64,000 bases of DNA from an uncultured bacterium. Lineage in GTDB: Bacteria; Oederibacteriota; Oederibacteriia; Oederibacteriales; Oederibacteriaceae. A program made the position numbers and the translations under genes. Of the stretch, positions 44,959-55,642 are shown piece by piece (the first letter of the stretch is position 1; each line of letters starts with the position of its first letter). Where the stretch lies: NCBI GenBank assembly GCA_965112635.1, contig OZ218778.1, positions 2,304,001 to 2,368,000 on the forward strand, written 5' to 3'. The notes beneath the pieces are model-generated. The model did no database searches and was not told the origin of the DNA. It worked only from the letters and a program-made list of their open reading frames with translations.

Positions 44959-46503
44959 CTACCGGGCATATTCAACAGCCCTTGTCTCGCGTATAACGAT
45001 CACCTTGATTTGACCCGGATATTCTAATTCTTTTTCAACTTTTTTGGCAATATCTCTCGCTAATTGGCTGGCCCCTATATCATCCACTTCCGCATGATCA
45101 ACAATGATTCGTATCTCCCTCCCCGCCTGAATAGCAAAAGCTCGCTCGACGCCCGAGAAAGAATCAGCGATTTTTTCGAGGTTCTCCAAACGTTTAATAT
45201 AACTTTCTAGCATTTCCCTGCGTGCGCCGGGCCTGGAAGCGGATACCGCATCGGCTACTTGAACCAACACGGCTTCAAGACACTGAAAGGGAGTCTCAAA
45301 ATGATGCGCCTGAATGGTATTGAGAACTTTGGGAGATTCGTTGAATTTGCGCGCCATATCAGCGCCAATCTGAGCATGAGAACCTTCTACCTCATGGGAA
45401 ACCGCTTTGCCAATATCATGCAGCAAGCCTCCGCGCTTGGCTACAGCCACATCGGCACCCAATTCCGCAGCCATTATTCCTGCAAGATAACACACTTCAA
45501 GTGAATGCATGAGAGTATTCTGGCCATAGCTTGTCCTATACTTCAGCCGCCCCAACAACTTGATCGCCTCGGGATGTAATCCAGGAATTCCTGCGTCTAC
45601 AGAGGCCTTTTCCCCTATCTCGCTGAGCTTAGTCTCCATCTCTTCTCTCACTTTGGCAACGACTTCCTCAATCCTGGCTGGATGGATACGTCCATCCACA
45701 ATTAAACGCTCAAGGGTTATACGGGCAATCTCCCTCCTAACCACATCGAATCCAGAAAGGATAACAGCCTCAGGAGTGTCGTCTACAACCACGTCGACAC
45801 CAGTGGCCATTTCCAAAGCACGAATATTTCGCCCCTCTTTGCCAATGATCCTGCCTTTCATATCTTCGTTGGGCAGAGTAACAACTGAAACCGTGGACTC
45901 CACGGTATGCTCTGTGGCAATCCGCTGAATGGCTGTGCTAACTATTTCCCTGGCTTTTCTCTCGGCAGTTTCCTTAGTCTCTTCTTCTATTTGCCTGATG
46001 AGGACTGCGCCGTCCAAACGGATCTGCTCCTCTAGCTGTTGTAACAAAGATTTTTTGGCCGCCTCTGCTGTCATCCCCGAAATCCTCTCCAAACGCTGGG
46101 TTACTTCTTCGATAAGCGCAGAGCACTTCTGCTCTTTCTCGAGAACACCCTTTTCCTTGAGGACAGACTCTTTTTCTCTTCCTATTAAATCCCGCTCCCT
46201 TTTCTCCAGGGTTTCTGATTTATTCTCCATGTTTTCTTCGCGTTGATTCAATCTTTTTTCGAGGTTTTGCATCTCATTCCGGCGGCTCTTGACCTCCTCG
46301 TCAAACTTGGCCCTTTCTTGGTAAAAAAAATCCTTCATTTCGACCGAAGTTTCCTTTTTTGCGTTATCGATCTGTTTTTTAGCGTCATCTAATATTGCTA
46401 ATGCCTGATCTTTTTTTGAACCCACGTAAGAGCCAACCAAATAGGTGCTGACCGCATAACCTAAACCAATTCCTGCTAAGCCAATAATAATAGGCAAAAA
46501 CAT
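44959..46503 (-). CDS. rny: ribonuclease Y
   Basis: N-terminal TM, coiled coil, KH ([13 protein letters not shown]), HD (LLHDIGK), [10 protein letters not shown]; ATG 46503 with AAGGAGG RBS. Confidence 0.97.
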
Positions 46504-46865
46504 AATGTGCGCCTCCTTAGGCAAAATATGAAATGGAAACAACTGTTTGATGAATATTTTTGGCTAAAAAAGGAATAAAAAGGGTGGCCCATGAAAAACT
46601 AGCTGAAAATGTCGGAAGAAAAAAGCAGCATCAATAGACCACAAAACTTATTAAACAATTGGCTGTTCCAAACACCATTAAGTTTTTACCAATCACATAA
46701 CAAGTCTATCTTCTACTGCCTGAACAGGCTAAAAACCCCGAGCAATCATTCTTCGTGTTCTTTAGCAATTTTTGTTAAAGCCTGATACAAAGGAAATCTC
46801 CCAAACAAATTCTTAAGCGCCAAAAGCCTTTTATCCAGTTTGTTAGCTCATACTTTACTAAATAT

Positions 46866-46895
46866 ATCATAATACATTCGTGTTCTGAATGACAA
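46866..46895 (-). promoter_or_regulatory. putative sigma70 promoter about 360 nt upstream of rny
   Basis: TTGTCA-N18-TATGAT on minus strand. Confidence 0.4.
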
Positions 46896-46910
46896 TAACA
46901 AAACGAATAA

Positions 46911-47465
46911 CTAGGACTTTCCCGAGCTTCTAGATTTTTTTAGCAAACCAAAGACCCTCATCCTATTTCCACCAAACCGAACCAACAAAACCGAAAGAAA
47001 TAAGAGAGAAAAATCCCTAATTAAGACGCCTGCTCCTATCTTTTCCCCCCAACCTAACAAATCAAAACAACCGCAGTCCAGATTGAAACCCCGTAAAAGA
47101 CTTATGGTAATGACCGCTATAAAAACCGATAGTAACACTGAAACGATCAAGGCTGCGCTCTGGACAAAAACATCGAACAAAACAAAAACCCCGCAGGTGA
47201 ATTCCAGCCAAGACATGATGGGCGAAAAAATAGGAACAAACACTTTAGGCAGCAGATCGTACAAATAAACTGTCTTTAGAAATTTATCCGGATAAACTAT
47301 TTTGCCTAGCCCGGAAATAATGAATAAAAGGCCGATAGTTAATTTGGCAATCAAAAATATGAGTGGCAAAAACCAGGGAACATGGCTTTTATTGCGGCGC
47401 CTTAACTCTATCCTTTGACTTGGCCTGAATTTTGAAAATAAGGCACTCTTATTTTTTCTTGACAT
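46911..47465 (-). CDS. MauE/DoxX-family membrane protein
   Basis: SGLGKI..P..F, WLE...G, LDCGCF, RD motif; start set at ATG 47465 overlapping rhodanese stop (track start 47621). Confidence 0.85.
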   Translation of the reverse strand: MSRKNKSALFSKFRPSQRIELRRRNKSHVPWFLPLIFLIAKLTIGLLFIISGLGKIVYPDKFLKTVYLYDLLPKVFVPIFSPIMSWLEFTCGVFVLFDVFVQSAALIVSVLLSVFIAVITISLLRGFNLDCGCFDLLGWGEKIGAGVLIRDFSLLFLSVLLVRFGGNRMRVFGLLKKSRSSGKS

Positions 47466-48054
47466 ACTTTTCCTCGTCACCCTGTTCGATGGGATAGCGG
47501 GCTTCTTTCCACATATCCCAACCCCCAAAAAAAACACAAACTTTCTTGTAACCAAAATCCCACAGCACCTCAGCAGCTTCCTTGGATAGATTGCACTCTG
47601 TCCCATGACAATAAGTGACAATGAGCTTGTTTTTGTTTTTCTTCAAAAGCTTAAAAACTCCGCCCGGGTCTTTAGAGATTACGGGCGAAGGGATAGCTCC
47701 TCGAATGTGTCCGGTTAAATACTCCTCATAGGACCTTGCATCTATAAATATAGTCTTTTTGCTCTTGAATAAAATCAAAGCCGTAGCAAGATTAATGGTT
47801 TTAATCTGCTGTTTAGATGAAGCGGGCTGTAATAAATTTTGATTAACAAAAATTATTTCCCTTTTATCATTTGGAATACGCTTTGATGTGACATGTCTAC
47901 CCTGATCCACAACAGGACCAGATTGAGGTTCTGTTAAATAATATACGCGCACCTGATTAATCACTGCCAATATTATAGAGATGAACAAAATGAGCAAGGA
48001 CTGCAGTATTATATCTTTAACTTTTTGATCTAGCAAAATAACTCTAATTTGCAT
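47449..48054 (-). CDS. membrane-anchored rhodanese-domain protein
   Basis: N-terminal TM, IDARSYEEYLTGHIRGA, YCHGTECNLS, GGWDMW. Confidence 0.88.
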   Translation of the reverse strand: MQIRVILLDQKVKDIILQSLLILFISIILAVINQVRVYYLTEPQSGPVVDQGRHVTSKRIPNDKREIIFVNQNLLQPASSKQQIKTINLATALILFKSKKTIFIDARSYEEYLTGHIRGAIPSPVISKDPGGVFKLLKKNKNKLIVTYCHGTECNLSKEAAEVLWDFGYKKVCVFFGGWDMWKEARYPIEQGDEEKYVKKK

Positions 48055-49192
48055 GGCCCCTTCTTTTTATATTGAACCGGTCGATACCGAACGGCTTGAT
48101 AATGTCCGAAGTTCGGCCTGATAATATTAACGCTGATATCTCCTGCGCTGTAATAGGAGTCAAAAGTATTCCTTTCCTAAAATGACCTGTTGCTAAAATG
48201 TACCCCTGAATAGGTGTTAAACCCAAAATGGGCCACCGGTCGGGCGCGGCTGGTCGCAACCCGCTTTCTACGCTTTCCATTCTGTAATTTTTTATTCCAG
48301 GATAGGTCTGAAGTGCCATCTTTAGCAAGCGATACACACCTTCGGGCGTAGAGGTTTTGTCAAAACCGACATCTTCTTCTATGGAGCCTAAGATCAAAGT
48401 ACCGTCTTTACGAGGAACTAAATAGCATCCCTTGGAAAAAACAACATTTTTTAGGTGGGAACGGTGCGCTGTATTGCTTATCCGCAAATTAACCCGCTGC
48501 CCCCTGATAGGGATGATGGGAACTTTTAAAGAAGGAACGCACAAAGAGGGCTTCCCAGCCCATGACCCTGCTGCGTTAATGACCCAGGCAGCTTTGAAAC
48601 TACCACACTTGGTTTTCACGCCCTCAACAACCGTCTGCTCTTCTAGTAGACCGACGACCTCTTGCTTCTCTTGAATATTGACATTGAATAACTTGCAGGC
48701 AGACAACAACGCCATCGTCAGTTTCCGGTTATCCACCTGATGGTCATTGTGTACATAAAAACCTCCTAAAAAAGAACTAGACACCCCAGGCCAATGGGCC
48801 AACATATCCTTTTTAGACATCCTGTCATAAACAAGCCCTCTTTTGTTTTGCCACATAAACTGGGATACAAGTTTTTTCTCTTCGGTTTGTTTATACACAG
48901 GATACAAGACGCCCGTCGGGATGTAATCGGCAGTTAACCCGGTAAAGTTTTCAAGCTCTCGTATAAAGGCAGGGTATAAAAGGCTACTTGCTTGATTTAA
49001 TAGGAAAAAATCGTCATTTTCAAAGGATTCGCCATAAGGCAACAACATTCCTGCAGCGGCAAAGGAAGCCTCCCTACCTATTAGTCCCCGTTCCAGGATG
49101 GTTATTTTTAGTTTTTTCTGGGACAACCGCCAGGCTATTGCCAAACCTATGATACCACCACCAATAATGATAACATCCGACTGGTTTTTCAT
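48044..49192 (-). CDS. thiO: glycine oxidase ThiO-like FAD oxidase
   Basis: IIGGGIIG, ASFAAAGML, QVDNR, YLVPR, GLRP, GHFRKGILLTP. Confidence 0.8.
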   Translation of the reverse strand: MKNQSDVIIIGGGIIGLAIAWRLSQKKLKITILERGLIGREASFAAAGMLLPYGESFENDDFFLLNQASSLLYPAFIRELENFTGLTADYIPTGVLYPVYKQTEEKKLVSQFMWQNKRGLVYDRMSKKDMLAHWPGVSSSFLGGFYVHNDHQVDNRKLTMALLSACKLFNVNIQEKQEVVGLLEEQTVVEGVKTKCGSFKAAWVINAAGSWAGKPSLCVPSLKVPIIPIRGQRVNLRISNTAHRSHLKNVVFSKGCYLVPRKDGTLILGSIEEDVGFDKTSTPEGVYRLLKMALQTYPGIKNYRMESVESGLRPAAPDRWPILGLTPIQGYILATGHFRKGILLTPITAQEISALILSGRTSDIIKPFGIDRFNIKRRGHAN

Positions 49193-49209
49193 TTCCGAAC
49201 CTCTCTAAA

Positions 49210-49812
49210 TTACCCGATCTGTCCGAACTCCCTGACCCGGAATTCAGCGCCAAGTTCGCGTGCTATTGTTTCGCATGCCTTGATATCTATAGTTGGTAAT
49301 CCCACCACAGTGACCACTACCCTTGGTATATATTTTGTGCACTCACCAATAAAATCCAAGACCCCCTGGAAAGCTGCCTCCCCGAATTCTGGCCTGCATA
49401 AGGCAACATATTTTTCTTTGTTTTCAGCGTTGAGGCTTATGGAAACAGCTCCCAGAAATCTGGCCAGGCCCGGAACAATATTGGTTTTATGAATCAGATT
49501 TCCATGCCCATTAGTGTTTAGCCTGATATTTCCGCCCGATTTTTTCAAAGCCATCCCCACTTGATTCAGGCAATCTAATCGCAGAGTCGGCTCACCAAAA
49601 CCGCAAAAAACAACCTCTTTATATTGTTTAGTATCCCCCACTGCCCTTATAATTTCTTCGGCTGATGGTTCCTTGGCTAAGCTCAGGTCAAATCCCTGGA
49701 CAATCGGTTTTTTTTTACGATCACAAAAAAGACACTCTGAAGTACACCGATTAGTAATATTGAGATATAGAGACTCTCTGATTTTATAGACAAAAATGGG
49801 ACGTTCAGTCAT
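49210..49812 (-). CDS. radical SAM protein of the TatD-associated family
   Basis: YLNITNRCTSECLFC, EVVFCGFGEP, RLNTNGHG, SISLNA; start set at ATG 49812 (track start 49860). Confidence 0.85.
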   Translation of the reverse strand: MTERPIFVYKIRESLYLNITNRCTSECLFCDRKKKPIVQGFDLSLAKEPSAEEIIRAVGDTKQYKEVVFCGFGEPTLRLDCLNQVGMALKKSGGNIRLNTNGHGNLIHKTNIVPGLARFLGAVSISLNAENKEKYVALCRPEFGEAAFQGVLDFIGECTKYIPRVVVTVVGLPTIDIKACETIARELGAEFRVREFGQIG

Positions 49813-49835
49813 CTGCACAACCCTTTGCTCAATAG

Positions 49836-50906
49836 TTAATAGCTCTTGGGGTAGTAACAATTTTCGTAAGCGGTCTTGTACATAGCCAAAATATTCTCTA
49901 GAGGCGCGTCTGGTTGAATGTAAGTATGGGAGGGACCTAGGATAAACCCCCCGCCATTTCCCAAAAGTCTGAATTTATTTAAGACCTCATTTCTTACGTC
50001 CCCAGGATTGCCCTTCCGTAGAATATTTAAAATATCTACGGAACCATAAAAAGTAATATCTTTTCCAAAATCTCTTTTTAGCCCTTCTGGTTCCATGCCC
50101 ACAGCCGTAGTTTGTATCGGCTCAAGGATGTCCACCCCTGCCTCAATGAGTTCCGGCATCAATTTCCTGACACTACCACACACATGGAGCAGAAATTTTT
50201 TTTGGTGTTTATGCAAAATATCAGAGATTGTCTGTAGGTATGGCTTAACATATTCCCGGAACATGGGGACTGAAATCATCGGCCCCTGAGCAGTACAAAA
50301 ATCATCAGCCATATAATAAATATCGAAAAATGGGCCAGCCTCAGAACACAGCCGTTCGACCGCCGGAAACATATAATGGGTTATCTTTCCTAAAATGGCT
50401 TTGGCTAGAGCCGGATTCTCAGCCATATCCATCAAAAAATTTGTCAGTCCCCTCATAAAAGTGGCGTTAAAAAAACATCCATGGGTGATATCCGCAATGA
50501 CCGCAACATCGGGATATCTCTGTCGGGCGGTCTTGATATTTTCATATGTAGTTTCATCAACGGTCGGCCAGGGATAGGCTTCAATCTCCTCGACCGTGTT
50601 TAAATTCCCCAGGGGATGATAAGCAATCTCGTATAAATAGCCGAAATCGTACTTCACTTTTCGTGTCCCATACCCCCAGAAACAAGTACTAATTCCTCCC
50701 GGCCTCTCACCGATATTTTTGAAATGATGGGTAACTTGTACTTCGCGGGTATCAGCGTGCACGGCTTTCCACAACTCATCATCTGTCTTGATTTTAAAAT
50801 GCTCTTTGAGTATAACCTTGACTTCCGCTTCGCAATCAAAAGTAATGGGCACCCTGTCCGGTTCTTTGTGACCCACTGCAGTCAAAACTCTGGCTCTTCC
50901 ATCCAT
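49836..50906 (-). CDS. uroporphyrinogen decarboxylase / MtaA-like TIM-barrel protein
   Basis: HKEPDRVP, MRG...L.D, ADD...Q.GPMIS, HVCG, PIQ, GGGFILGPSH, PLENI. Confidence 0.85.
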   Translation of the reverse strand: MDGRARVLTAVGHKEPDRVPITFDCEAEVKVILKEHFKIKTDDELWKAVHADTREVQVTHHFKNIGERPGGISTCFWGYGTRKVKYDFGYLYEIAYHPLGNLNTVEEIEAYPWPTVDETTYENIKTARQRYPDVAVIADITHGCFFNATFMRGLTNFLMDMAENPALAKAILGKITHYMFPAVERLCSEAGPFFDIYYMADDFCTAQGPMISVPMFREYVKPYLQTISDILHKHQKKFLLHVCGSVRKLMPELIEAGVDILEPIQTTAVGMEPEGLKRDFGKDITFYGSVDILNILRKGNPGDVRNEVLNKFRLLGNGGGFILGPSHTYIQPDAPLENILAMYKTAYENCYYPKSY

Positions 50907-50934
50907 AATACTAGCCTAACCTTTCGTTTCGTTC

Positions 50935-52245
50935 TTACTTGGTCAGATCGTATGTCCCGCTCTTCTCACCGAACACGCCCCATTTATCCAAAGCTTTTTT
51001 TAGCTCTCGGTTGGATTCGGCCGCAACCCTGAGCGGAGTATGGCTTAAAGTAGCTTTGATGGCCTGGTAAAAAGCTTTCACCCCGGCCACTACCCCGTCC
51101 GGATGCGCGTGTATCCCCCCACCAGCACCAATAAGAAAATCGTTCCCAAAATACTCCATCATTTCAGTAACCATGCCAGGATAATTCCCGGCCGCTGGCC
51201 CAGGCAGAACCTTTTTCAGGTTATACATGGGATAAGTCAATTCATGTGCCACCCGTACGGCTTTTTCTTTCACTAATGGTACCTTGCCAAAGGGTCCGGG
51301 GTAAATTAGCATGTCGGCCCCGCTCAACCTCAAAAATTTTCCAAAAATAAGATTGGAGGTAAGGCCATAAAGAGGCGACTCAAACTGGCTTCCTGCGTAG
51401 GCTGGATGGGCCAAGATCGGCAGTTCTATCTGTTTATTTTCAGCCAATTCTTGTAAAGCGCCATATCCAACGGCATAGGCGTTGACCATAAGAGCATTAC
51501 CTCCCATCTTTTGGACCTTTAATGCTTTTTTGACCATAAGTGATGGGGTATCGGTCACATTGATGGTATAAAGCGTCTTCTTGCCGGTCTGCTTACAAGC
51601 CTTTTGGATGCCCTTCATGCATTCGCTTAATCTCGCTTCCACGGAACAAAATTCTGGATCGGCTAACAACTCGTCGTCCTTGATAATATCAATCCCTCCC
51701 ATAGCCATCTCATAGACCAACTTTCCCGCAGTCTTCGCAGAGATTCCCACACAAGGCTTGATCATTCCACATAAGAGGGGGCGTCCATGAACATCCAAAA
51801 GCTTCCGGATACCCGCGATGCCAAATTTTGGTCCTTGAAAATGGCTGACAAAAGATTTGGGAAGAAAAACATCTAGCAATTTAAGCCGGCTGAGCATGGA
51901 AATATTGCCGTATAGCGTCGTAATCAATTCTGGTATTTGATAATTGATATTAATGATCGGGAACGCAACAATAATAATGAATTTACGGGTCTTCACTTCA
52001 GGCGGAACCATATCTTCGTAACTAGGTACTTCATGGACCCCGATGACCCGTCCGCCGCTAACTTTCTTGACCGTATCTGTATCTTCTGGGACCGGTTGCC
52101 ACGTTCCGGTTGTTTGCTCAACGGCCAAAGCAGCCGACCGCATTAAGAGATCCGATGTTTCAGCTTCAGAATAATAAATGGCCAGGATATATTTTTCTTT
52201 GTCCAAACCTTCAAAAATATCAAAGGTAAAAGGATCATATCTCAT
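50935..52245 (-). CDS. RuBisCO-like protein (form IV)
   Basis: EQTTGTW, GPKFG, MIKPCVG, DIIKDDE, HPAYAG, PGPFGK, GAGGGIHAHPDG; lacks several carboxylase residues. Confidence 0.92.
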   Translation of the reverse strand: MRYDPFTFDIFEGLDKEKYILAIYYSEAETSDLLMRSAALAVEQTTGTWQPVPEDTDTVKKVSGGRVIGVHEVPSYEDMVPPEVKTRKFIIIVAFPIININYQIPELITTLYGNISMLSRLKLLDVFLPKSFVSHFQGPKFGIAGIRKLLDVHGRPLLCGMIKPCVGISAKTAGKLVYEMAMGGIDIIKDDELLADPEFCSVEARLSECMKGIQKACKQTGKKTLYTINVTDTPSLMVKKALKVQKMGGNALMVNAYAVGYGALQELAENKQIELPILAHPAYAGSQFESPLYGLTSNLIFGKFLRLSGADMLIYPGPFGKVPLVKEKAVRVAHELTYPMYNLKKVLPGPAAGNYPGMVTEMMEYFGNDFLIGAGGGIHAHPDGVVAGVKAFYQAIKATLSHTPLRVAAESNRELKKALDKWGVFGEKSGTYDLTK

Positions 52246-52436
52246 GGATTTGTCCTCCTTACAAAAAATATAAGCATCTATTTTCCCAATTATTCACATT
52301 TAATAGATATATGCAACCCTTGATTAAAAAATAACAGATGTTTTCAGTCGGATGTTTTCCATTCAAATTTTCGCTTCTCATGGTAAACTTGCTTTGAATA
52401 AACCCTAAAAACCTACGGGTTGCAATAGGAGTTATC

Positions 52437-52895
52437 ATGGAAAAGAACACAGGGTGGCTTGAGAAAAGAAAGCACGAGCGGGTGGATGTCGTAATAAAGA
52501 TAAAATTTACCCCGCTTAATGAGAAAGAAATATCCAGCCTTAATATTAAAGAAAATTATCAGTCAGTGGACAGCACAGTGTTGTCCGAATTTTCTAAACA
52601 AGAAAAGACCCTCGAAGCCATAACCCAGGATATTGGATCGGGGGGCATCATGATAGTCAGCAATACGCCACTATTTTTTGGTCAAAAGCTTCTAATAGAA
52701 ATGGTTTTGCCCAATGCAAGAAGGACATTGAGGGCACTGGTGAGAGTGGTCCGCGTTCAGGAAGACAGAGGCAAAGCTGCACCGGCTTATCGAGCAGCCA
52801 TCCAGATCATCTCGATCAATCAGGCAGACCTCGAGGATCTAGAGCGTTTTGTACAGAATCAGATCATGAAAGACATCTTAAAAAAGATGACGTAG
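52437..52895 (+). CDS. stand-alone PilZ-domain protein
   Basis: EKRKHERV and DIGSGG motifs, VRVVRV; AGGAG RBS; TGGTAAACT extended -10 at 52381-52389. Confidence 0.82.
   Translation: MEKNTGWLEKRKHERVDVVIKIKFTPLNEKEISSLNIKENYQSVDSTVLSEFSKQEKTLEAITQDIGSGGIMIVSNTPLFFGQKLLIEMVLPNARRTLRALVRVVRVQEDRGKAAPAYRAAIQIISINQADLEDLERFVQNQIMKDILKKMT

Positions 52896-52912: not shown

Positions 52913-55642
<2,730 letters not shown>

Follow-up and report, generated by a model that had tools for sequence, protein, structure and literature searches.

We analysed a 64,000-nucleotide (nt) stretch of DNA, here called the window (positions 2,304,001 to 2,368,000 of contig OZ218778.1, assembly GCA_965112635.1), from an uncultured bacterium of the Oederibacteriaceae whose genome is a single contig of 2.88 Mb. 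Within the window lies a tight array of six genes headed by a gene for a RuBisCO-like protein (RLP), and the question was whether these genes make up one RLP pathway. Genes were called from a list of open reading frames (ORFs), and families were assigned by Pfam and NCBIfam scans. The six genes, the two intergenic regions at the borders and the two genes beyond them are as follows, in window positions.

50935-52245, minus strand: RLP gene, 436 amino acids; Pfam RuBisCO_large, 168 bits.
49836-50906, minus strand: UroD-like gene, 356 amino acids; URO-D, 88.6 bits.
49210-49812, minus strand: radical S-adenosylmethionine (SAM) gene, 200 amino acids from its ATG; TIGR04038, 261.8 bits against a cut-off of 129.7.
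48044-49192, minus strand: ThiO gene (FAD, DAO family, glycine oxidase type); TIGR02352, 299.2 bits against a cut-off of 250.8.
47449-48054, minus strand: gene for a single-domain, putatively membrane-anchored rhodanese; Rhodanese, 56.4 bits, hydrophobic N terminus.
46911-47465, minus strand: gene for a MauE/DoxX-family integral membrane protein; MauE, 71.3 bits.
52246-52436: divergent intergenic region of 191 nt between the RLP gene (minus) and the PilZ gene (plus), likely the promoter region of the array.
46543-46910: intergenic stretch of 368 nt before the RNase Y gene, at the end of the array.
52437-52895, plus strand: PilZ gene.
44959-46542: RNase Y gene, flanking the array beyond MauE.

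A sequence-only reading of this DNA had described six co-oriented genes with gaps of 28, about 23 and 17 nt followed by two overlaps, bounded by a divergent promoter region and a long intergenic stretch. The ORF listing bore out this description: from RLP to MauE the junctions measure 28, 23 and 17 nt, after which the ThiO stop overlaps the rhodanese start by 11 nt and the rhodanese stop overlaps the MauE start by 17 nt, and both bounding regions are present at the lengths given above. All six family assignments were also upheld. A strong Shine-Dalgarno sequence, AAGGAGG, precedes the RLP ATG by 7 nt, and a ribosome-binding site is likewise present for the UroD-like gene itself. Searches with the radical SAM gene were run with 49210-49809, one codon short of its ATG.

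The RLP matched both the N and C domains of the RuBisCO large subunit (PF00016, 168.2 bits; PF02788, 27.3 bits) and missed the carboxylase models (TIGR03326, 236 bits against 497; NF003252, 239 against 438). By these profile matches it is a non-carboxylating, form IV member of the RuBisCO superfamily. The best-scoring model was that of MtnW, whose cut-off it missed (NF007095, 387.9 bits against 409), as it did that of a second MtnW model (TIGR03332, 336.6 against 513.6); the OiaX model gave 208.7 bits against a cut-off of 700. The nearest solved structure was 2OEK, the MtnW of Geobacillus kaustophilus, which aligned over residues 21-425 at 311 bits. Asn114 of the RLP aligned with Lys98 of MtnW (G. 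kaustophilus numbering), and this Asn was nearly invariant in an 18-row alignment of the clade; Lys98 is the residue that Imker et al. reportedly identified in 2007 as the general base of the MtnW enolase. The K189-D190-D191-E192 metal/carbamate motif, K163, H280 and Cys165 (in "KPC") were invariant in the clade alignment, and Lys321 (in "GKVP") was nearly so. A scan of metagenome contigs with the single RLP returned 36 pattern matches, none of them a relative.

We then looked at which genes accompany this RLP elsewhere. The comparison covered 98 other genomes of the phylum, all related to the host only at phylum level. At 18 loci in these related genomes, the DNA around RLP orthologues (44-61% identical) was searched with ten window proteins. 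A species-wide profile scan, with one genome per species, gave 376 RLP relatives, and the best 80 loci were examined over 7 kb around the RLP. None of the 80 loci had a homologue of the UroD-like protein, the TIGR04038 radical SAM protein, ThiO, the rhodanese or MauE, and the first four were likewise absent near the RLP at all 18 related loci. The sequence-only reading had raised an RLP pathway over the six genes, to be given up if orthologous RLPs never occurred with the others; apart from one MauE gene, described below, they never did, and such a pathway is not supported. Its remark that the partners of known RLPs are missing was correct, since no mtn genes, DUF1537 kinases or transporters adjoin the window RLP.

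The RLP relatives had recurrent neighbours of a different kind. At 7 of the 18 related loci (Pfam on 86 ORFs) the RLP gene was directly followed by a gene for an HMGL-like protein of about 460 amino acids with a post-HMGL (HCS_D2) domain, and genes for xylose-isomerase-like TIM barrels and for GFO/IDH/MocA oxidoreductases were frequent in the vicinity. In the species-wide set an HMGL-like gene adjoined the RLP at 14 of 80 loci, once only as a 33-amino-acid piece at a contig end. An FGGY kinase gene lay within 7 kb at 40 of the 80, and 27 loci, many of them on short contigs, had neither. Other neighbours in the FGGY-linked set were saccharopine-dehydrogenase-like genes (19 loci), class III aminotransferase genes (11 loci) and PEP_hydrolase with UPF0261 (4 loci). 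The members of this FGGY-linked sister clade are 42-50% identical to the window RLP (loci L083-L139, e.g. L088:5332-6921 and L105:8356-9981) and come from Chloroflexota, Asgard archaea (Thor-, Jord- and Promethearchaeota), Thermoplasmatota, Thermodesulfobacteriota and Bacillota.

The two sets came apart in a maximum-likelihood tree of 78 rows, built by a quick search. The window RLP fell inside a 23-row clade (SH-aLRT support 100) that contained all 14 HMGL-linked rows, with Elusimicrobiota sequences nearest to it, and all 39 FGGY-linked rows lay across a fully supported branch from this clade. The window RLP therefore belongs to the HMGL-linked clade by placement, and no HMGL-like gene adjoins it. 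The host does have the HMGL-like orthologue, at genome positions 1,100,055-1,101,422, 1.25 Mb from the RLP gene and 65% identical to its counterpart at an RLP-linked locus (L015). At a threshold of E 1e-90 or better for the HMGL-like orthologue, 17 of the 98 other genomes had both genes, 3 had the RLP only, 1 had the HMGL-like gene only and 77 had neither. In the 17 genomes with both, the two genes were adjacent in 8, joined across a contig break in 1, unlinked in 6 and at contig ends, where linkage is undecidable, in 2. The pair was also found in Nitrospirota and Desantisbacteria metagenome-assembled genomes (MAGs), beside those of Firestonebacteria and Elusimicrobiota.

A few RLP loci differed from this pattern. 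In relatives of one family (L017, L019 and L020:9367-9984) a histidine-phosphatase gene (branch 1, CobC-like) took the place of the HMGL-like gene after the RLP gene; in L020 a PhyH-family dioxygenase gene also followed, and in the genomes of this family the HMGL-like orthologue lay on another contig. A radical SAM gene adjoining the RLP in locus L024 was considered as a relative of the window radical SAM gene and was rejected, as it proved to be BioB.

The host HMGL-like gene (L037:8049-9437) belongs to a long sugar-nucleotide/glycan cluster, in the stretch of genome positions 1,092,001-1,110,000 that locus L037 covers. Its neighbours encode an aldo-keto reductase, two GT2 glycosyltransferases, methyltransferases, an NDP-sugar epimerase/dehydratase and UDP-glucose dehydrogenase, and further an SDR protein, a GFO-family dehydrogenase, a GHMP kinase, a nucleotidyltransferase and DegT-type aminotransferases. 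The chemistry of the RLP and the HMGL-like enzyme may feed a glycan.

According to a review (PMC10176493), only a handful of RLPs have been characterised, and as far as the parts consulted of that review and of a second one (PMC6302742) go, the known reactions are only proton abstraction, isomerisation, decarboxylation/transcarboxylation and oxygenation. Our literature search turned up no paper in which an RLP is connected with an HMGL/LeuA-like enzyme, an FGGY kinase or Firestonebacteria, and co-mentions of isopropylmalate synthase were apparently incidental. We give about even odds to the idea that the window RLP represents a branch of the RuBisCO superfamily whose function has yet to be described, that this branch works with a LeuA/HMGL-like enzyme forming or cleaving C-C bonds, and that its reaction is none of the four known RLP chemistries but possibly one making or breaking a branched or extended sugar acid. 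In the explanation that we favour overall (below), the RLP belongs to an uncharacterised clade grouping with MtnW and would enolise or isomerise its substrate, and its true partner is the LeuA/HMGL-like synthase, which has moved 1.25 Mb away. We infer that the RLP makes or consumes a phosphorylated keto-sugar or keto-acid, which the HMGL-like enzyme would then condense or cleave.

The gene next to the RLP gene behaved quite independently of it. The UroD-like protein had 17 further tblastn loci in the host genome (e.g. at 273083, 579620, 1738501, 1894770 and 2417531), giving about 18 scattered paralogues in total, and related genomes with matches had 6-40 first-look candidates each. The best matches in the phylum were only 40-43% identical, and all 34 matches in relatives lay on contigs other than that of the same genome's RLP; their neighbours included genes for amidohydrolases, a GH2 glycosidase, an MFS transporter and an amine oxidase. 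A species-wide scan gave 576 relatives, mostly from Planctomycetota, Verrucomicrobiota, Latescibacterota and Chloroflexota. At the 80 loci examined no radical SAM, ThiO, rhodanese or MauE gene was near the UroD-like gene, and a RuBisCO-family gene was present at one (L189), two genes upstream. In the alignment of UroD-like proteins H241-x-C243 and H327 were conserved, which suggests a metal site. The Pfam URO-D match covered profile positions 100-344 only and the HemE model was not among the NCBIfam matches; the approximately 18 paralogues argue against a HemE role. The MtaA/CmuA (MT2) models gave about 64 bits against cut-offs of 235-244, so that the protein falls outside MT2 as these models define it. 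A sequence search of the PDB found no match for the UroD-like or the radical SAM protein.

These data bear on the possibility that the RLP and the UroD-like protein are a newly recruited pair acting on a sugar phosphate or on a methylated or methylthio sugar, with the four downstream genes as unrelated passengers. The two genes are only 28 nt apart, with the UroD-like gene carrying its own ribosome-binding site, and the RLP has parted from its usual HMGL-like partner and lies on a long terminal branch. There is also a partial precedent in locus L189 of an unrelated MAG, where genes for a class II aldolase-like protein, an OiaX-like RLP, a mannitol-1-phosphate-dehydrogenase-like protein and a UroD-like protein stand in a row (L189:430-6032). 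However, that distant RLP is only 25.6% identical to the window RLP and belongs to a different clade, and it is the single RuBisCO-family gene among the 80 UroD-like loci, just as no UroD-like gene was seen at the 80 loci of the RLP clade. With about 18 paralogues scattered over the genome, a chance adjacency of the RLP and UroD-like genes is likely, and the retention of the HMGL-like orthologue suggests that the old partnership persists. We therefore regard a newly recruited pair as unlikely. The sequence-only reading had offered, as its second option, an RLP and UroD-like catabolic pair sitting upstream of unrelated genes; its caution that the RLP may sit upstream of unrelated genes holds up, and the pair is not supported.

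The resemblance to MtnW raised a different possibility, the salvage of SAM by-products or methylthio-sugars. Here the RLP would act, like MtnW or the RLP of Rhodospirillum rubrum, on methylthioribulose-1-phosphate or 5-deoxyribulose-1-phosphate supplied by purine nucleoside phosphorylase (PNP) and MtnA; the UroD-like protein, as an MT2-like protein, would handle the methylthio group, and the radical SAM protein would be the source of 5'-deoxyadenosine. Among solved and curated proteins, the best relatives of the RLP are indeed MtnW enzymes, the UroD-like protein has its H-x-C motif and weak MtaA/CmuA similarity, and the genome encodes a true MtnA (TIGR00512, 438.9 bits against a cut-off of 279), 446 kb from the RLP gene, with a PNP gene directly upstream (the two genes at 2,800,808-2,802,589). 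But the RLP has Asn at the position of Lys98 and misses both MtnW cut-offs, MtnK was searched for in the genome and not found, and the only MtaC-like corrinoid protein gene (B12-binding_2), at 2,594,642, lies far from the array. In addition, MtnA was present in 92 of the 98 other genomes compared with 20 for the RLP, so that the two do not track each other, and the recurrent neighbours in the RLP clade are HMGL-like genes or FGGY kinase genes. At the 18 plus 24 RLP loci whose neighbours were scanned with Pfam, none of these neighbours was named as an mtn gene, MtnX and MtnD not having been searched for. A class II aldolase gene (2,808,823-2,809,353) lies 7 kb from MtnA, and together with PNP and MtnA it looks like a disposal route of the dihydroxyacetone phosphate (DHAP)-shunt type for methylthioadenosine (MTA) or 5'-deoxyadenosine that would need neither MtnK nor an RLP. 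Since MtnK was not found, MtnA is distant and nearly universal and an aldolase route would be available, a role of the RLP in methionine salvage is unlikely, and we hold the salvage scheme as a whole to be quite improbable.

The radical SAM gene turned out to have a history of its own. Its translation contains the motif C-TSE-C-LF-C (CxxxCxxC), and it scores well above the cut-off of the TIGR04038 "TatD-associated" family, a name that our literature search found in no paper. Homologues were present in 31 of the 98 other genomes, in 30 cases within open frames of 430-560 amino acids, the remaining one being cut by a contig end. In all three relatives examined the homologue was the C-terminal part of a fusion with an N-terminal TatD domain, encoded directly after metG (456-485 amino acids; L142:3184-4554, L143:3220-4677 and L144:3375-4769). 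In the host, TatD is encoded by a separate 273-amino-acid gene at genome positions 1,091,096-1,091,860, without metG directly upstream and 1.26 Mb from the radical SAM gene. From the fusion in relatives and the separate TatD here, the window radical SAM protein is, on sequence grounds, the detached and relocated C-terminal domain of a TatD-radical SAM fusion. Thirteen genomes had both a radical SAM match and an RLP, on the same contig in none of the 13, which speaks against a link between them.

For ThiO the genome offers an ordinary occupation. A thiS-thiG-thiE set lies at 1.837 Mb and thiC at 2.258 Mb, with ThiG scoring 381.7 bits, and genome searches found neither ThiH nor Thi4. This leaves ThiO as the only visible source of dehydroglycine. 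ThiO is thus probably a scattered thiamine gene that would supply dehydroglycine to ThiG for synthesis of the thiamine thiazole, with the other thi genes likewise scattered. Of the thi and mtn genes that the sequence-only reading had singled out for checking, thiG, thiS and mtnA were present elsewhere in the genome, and Thi4 and MtnK were not found. ThiO homologues occurred in 40 of the 98 other genomes, in families almost complementary to those with the radical SAM gene, and none of 45 lay within 5 kb of a rhodanese or MauE gene, among the matches listed. A scan of species genomes gave only ThiO relatives of 29-38% identity, at 23 loci. No rhodanese, MauE, TIGR04038 radical SAM or RLP gene was near them at any of the 23 loci, and at one (L256) a UroD-like match stood beside a marginal ThiO relative (E-value 2e-4).

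The last two genes of the array, in contrast to the others, do belong together. At least 81 of 92 MauE matches, in 73 of 82 genomes, had a rhodanese gene on the same strand within 300 nt, always upstream, and by this conservation rhodanese-MauE is an independent two-gene module, predicted to act as a membrane thiol/sulfane-sulfur redox pair. A functional precedent comes from Mycobacterium tuberculosis, where a DoxX-type integral membrane protein forms a membrane-associated oxidoreductase complex with SseA (and SodA) (PMC6930017); SseA is described as a rhodanese-like sulfurtransferase (PMC12375888). Several relatives have a single in-frame TGA in the rhodanese gene upstream of MauE (e.g. G012:C20:11348-11707, G060:C4:749215-749583 and G061:C33:18266-18667), and these may be selenocysteine forms. 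The window rhodanese matches the NCBIfam models of rhodanese-related selenoproteins below their cut-offs and has no in-frame stop.

A sulfur/thiazole pathway over all six genes, the first option of the sequence-only reading, in which ThiO would give dehydroglycine, the rhodanese a persulfide and the RLP an enolised sugar phosphate on the way to a thiazole-like product, is chemically plausible and has the physical contiguity of the genes and the 11-nt overlap of ThiO and rhodanese on its side, but it is close to refuted, because the ThiS/ThiG/ThiE/ThiC set elsewhere needs ThiO, the rhodanese has a hydrophobic N terminus and travels with MauE and not with ThiO, the ThiO and radical SAM families are almost complementary over the phylum, the 23 ThiO-relative loci lack rhodanese, MauE, TIGR04038 radical SAM and RLP genes, and the RLP orthologues, apart from the one with MauE, are not found beside any of these genes.

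Taken together, the data are best explained if the array is a lineage-specific, probably co-transcribed set of four or five functionally independent modules and not one pathway, a reading to which we assign a probability of about 0.7. The modules would be the RLP, separated from its HMGL-like partner; the UroD-like gene, as one of many paralogues; the detached radical SAM domain; ThiO; and the rhodanese-MauE pair. The reading is built on the families assigned to the genes, the finding that no linkage between the modules is conserved, the linkage and co-occurrence of the RLP with the HMGL-like gene, the fusion state in relatives and the conservation of rhodanese-MauE, all of which were observed directly. 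Two of the six genes are demonstrably separated from their usual partners, and the genome is compact, strand-biased and evidently rearranged.

The general gene layout of the genome counts in favour of this reading. Minus-strand ORFs make up 44 of the 49 called in the window, and neighbouring genes on the same strand are no more than 30 nt apart in 19 of 40 pairs in the window and in 159 of 340 pairs over the genome's first 600 kb (from longest-ORF calling, which somewhat underestimates gaps). With this strand bias, and about half of same-strand gaps at 30 nt or less, a tight co-oriented array is less special than it appears. A comparable run of short junctions is present at 19.4-24.6 kb of the window.

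Several points weigh against independent modules. Five short junctions in a row, two of them overlaps, have a chance of only about 2% at about 47% short gaps per junction, assuming independence. Co-transcription of the six genes is plausible, and they may well be co-expressed, since no internal promoters or terminators were seen beyond the number expected from shuffles; the consensus scan inside the array, with 9 promoter-like sites against 14.1 expected and 4 terminator-like sites against 7.5, was uninformative. The six genes also share a loose sulfur/SAM/thiamine theme. One related locus (L029, 1 of 18) has a MauE gene 1.5 kb from the RLP, and the UroD-like locus L189 described above has its RuBisCO-family gene. 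No terminal branch in the tree is longer than that of the window RLP (0.5), and its length could mean that the function shifted once the RLP had parted from the HMGL-like gene. The genomes searched include no second member of the host's family, and RLP identity reaches at most 61%. Because all comparisons were made at phylum distance, they would show nothing of a pathway that is young and specific to this lineage; the RLP may have been recruited recently, in this lineage, to the genes of the array. Finally, the co-occurrence counts come from related genomes that are not independent of each other, so that they overstate the number of independent cases.

If the modules are independent, the six-gene context is a poor guide to the RLP substrate, and tests built on ThiO or rhodanese chemistry would probably be wasted effort. 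The useful lead is the pairing of the RLP with the HMGL-like gene, along with the sister clade linked to FGGY kinases: a concrete gene pair, with 376 relatives to draw on, from which a new function could be assigned within the RuBisCO superfamily. The locus is also an example of how tight co-oriented spacing alone can mimic an operon in a compact, strongly strand-biased genome, and it documents the fission of a TatD-radical SAM fusion.

The array is flanked by same-strand housekeeping genes, namely purM/F/Q/L/S/B, YmdB, RNase Y, class II ribonucleotide reductase, Obg, L21 and a MiaB-like gene. The pur cluster is at 32.6-40.1 kb, and the GC skew is negative throughout 43-56 kb; the strand bias and the skew fit a long run of co-directional housekeeping genes on the leading strand. 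The class II (B12-dependent) ribonucleotide reductase gene, at 52913-55642, encodes a C-terminal tail with two CxxC pairs that resembles a zinc ribbon. At the end of the array, promoter-like hexamers at 46895-46866 (consensus scan) probably serve RNase Y, and the same scan found no terminator-like site in 46543-46910. GC content over the array is unremarkable (0.39-0.49). Acquisition of the six genes as one horizontally transferred island was considered and rejected, since their best relatives are in different lineages and the GC content is unremarkable. A search of sequencing runs found two DNA runs that contain 0.26 and 0.09 of the sampled words, and no RNA run was listed for the locus.

Compared with known systems, the window RLP is closest to MtnW/YkrW, the 2,3-diketo-5-methylthiopentyl-1-phosphate enolase (2OEK; Bacillus subtilis 2ZVI), with which it shares the two-domain RuBisCO fold families, the K-D-D-E motif, the "IKP" lysine and the "AHPA" histidine. 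It differs in the "KPC" and "GKVP" motifs, which are specific to its clade, and in having no mtn neighbours, the recurrent partner of its clade being the HMGL-like synthase. With the methylthioribulose-1-phosphate 1,3-isomerase of R. rubrum, the OiaX/OiaC decarboxylase/transcarboxylase of the apiose pathway and the oxygenase of the hamamelose pathway it has form IV membership in common, and presumably also enediolate chemistry on a phosphorylated keto-sugar; in contrast to these, neither a DUF1537 kinase nor a cupin gene adjoins it. The UroD-like protein shares the URO-D fold family and the H-x-C motif with MtaA/CmuA and uroporphyrinogen decarboxylase, but its gene, unlike those of MT2 methyltransferases, has no adjacent corrinoid protein gene. 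The radical SAM protein is 39-55% identical to the C-terminal halves of the TatD-radical SAM fusions, yet it stands alone, away from TatD and metG. ThiO resembles the ThiO of ThiG-type thiazole synthesis in passing the equivalog cut-off and in the presence of ThiS, ThiG, ThiE and ThiC in the genome, and it differs in clustering with no thi gene. The rhodanese and MauE proteins, like the DoxX-SseA-SodA complex, would pair a DoxX/MauE-type membrane protein with a rhodanese-type sulfurtransferase; in the window the two genes are adjacent and overlapping, the rhodanese has a hydrophobic N terminus, and no SodA gene is linked to them.

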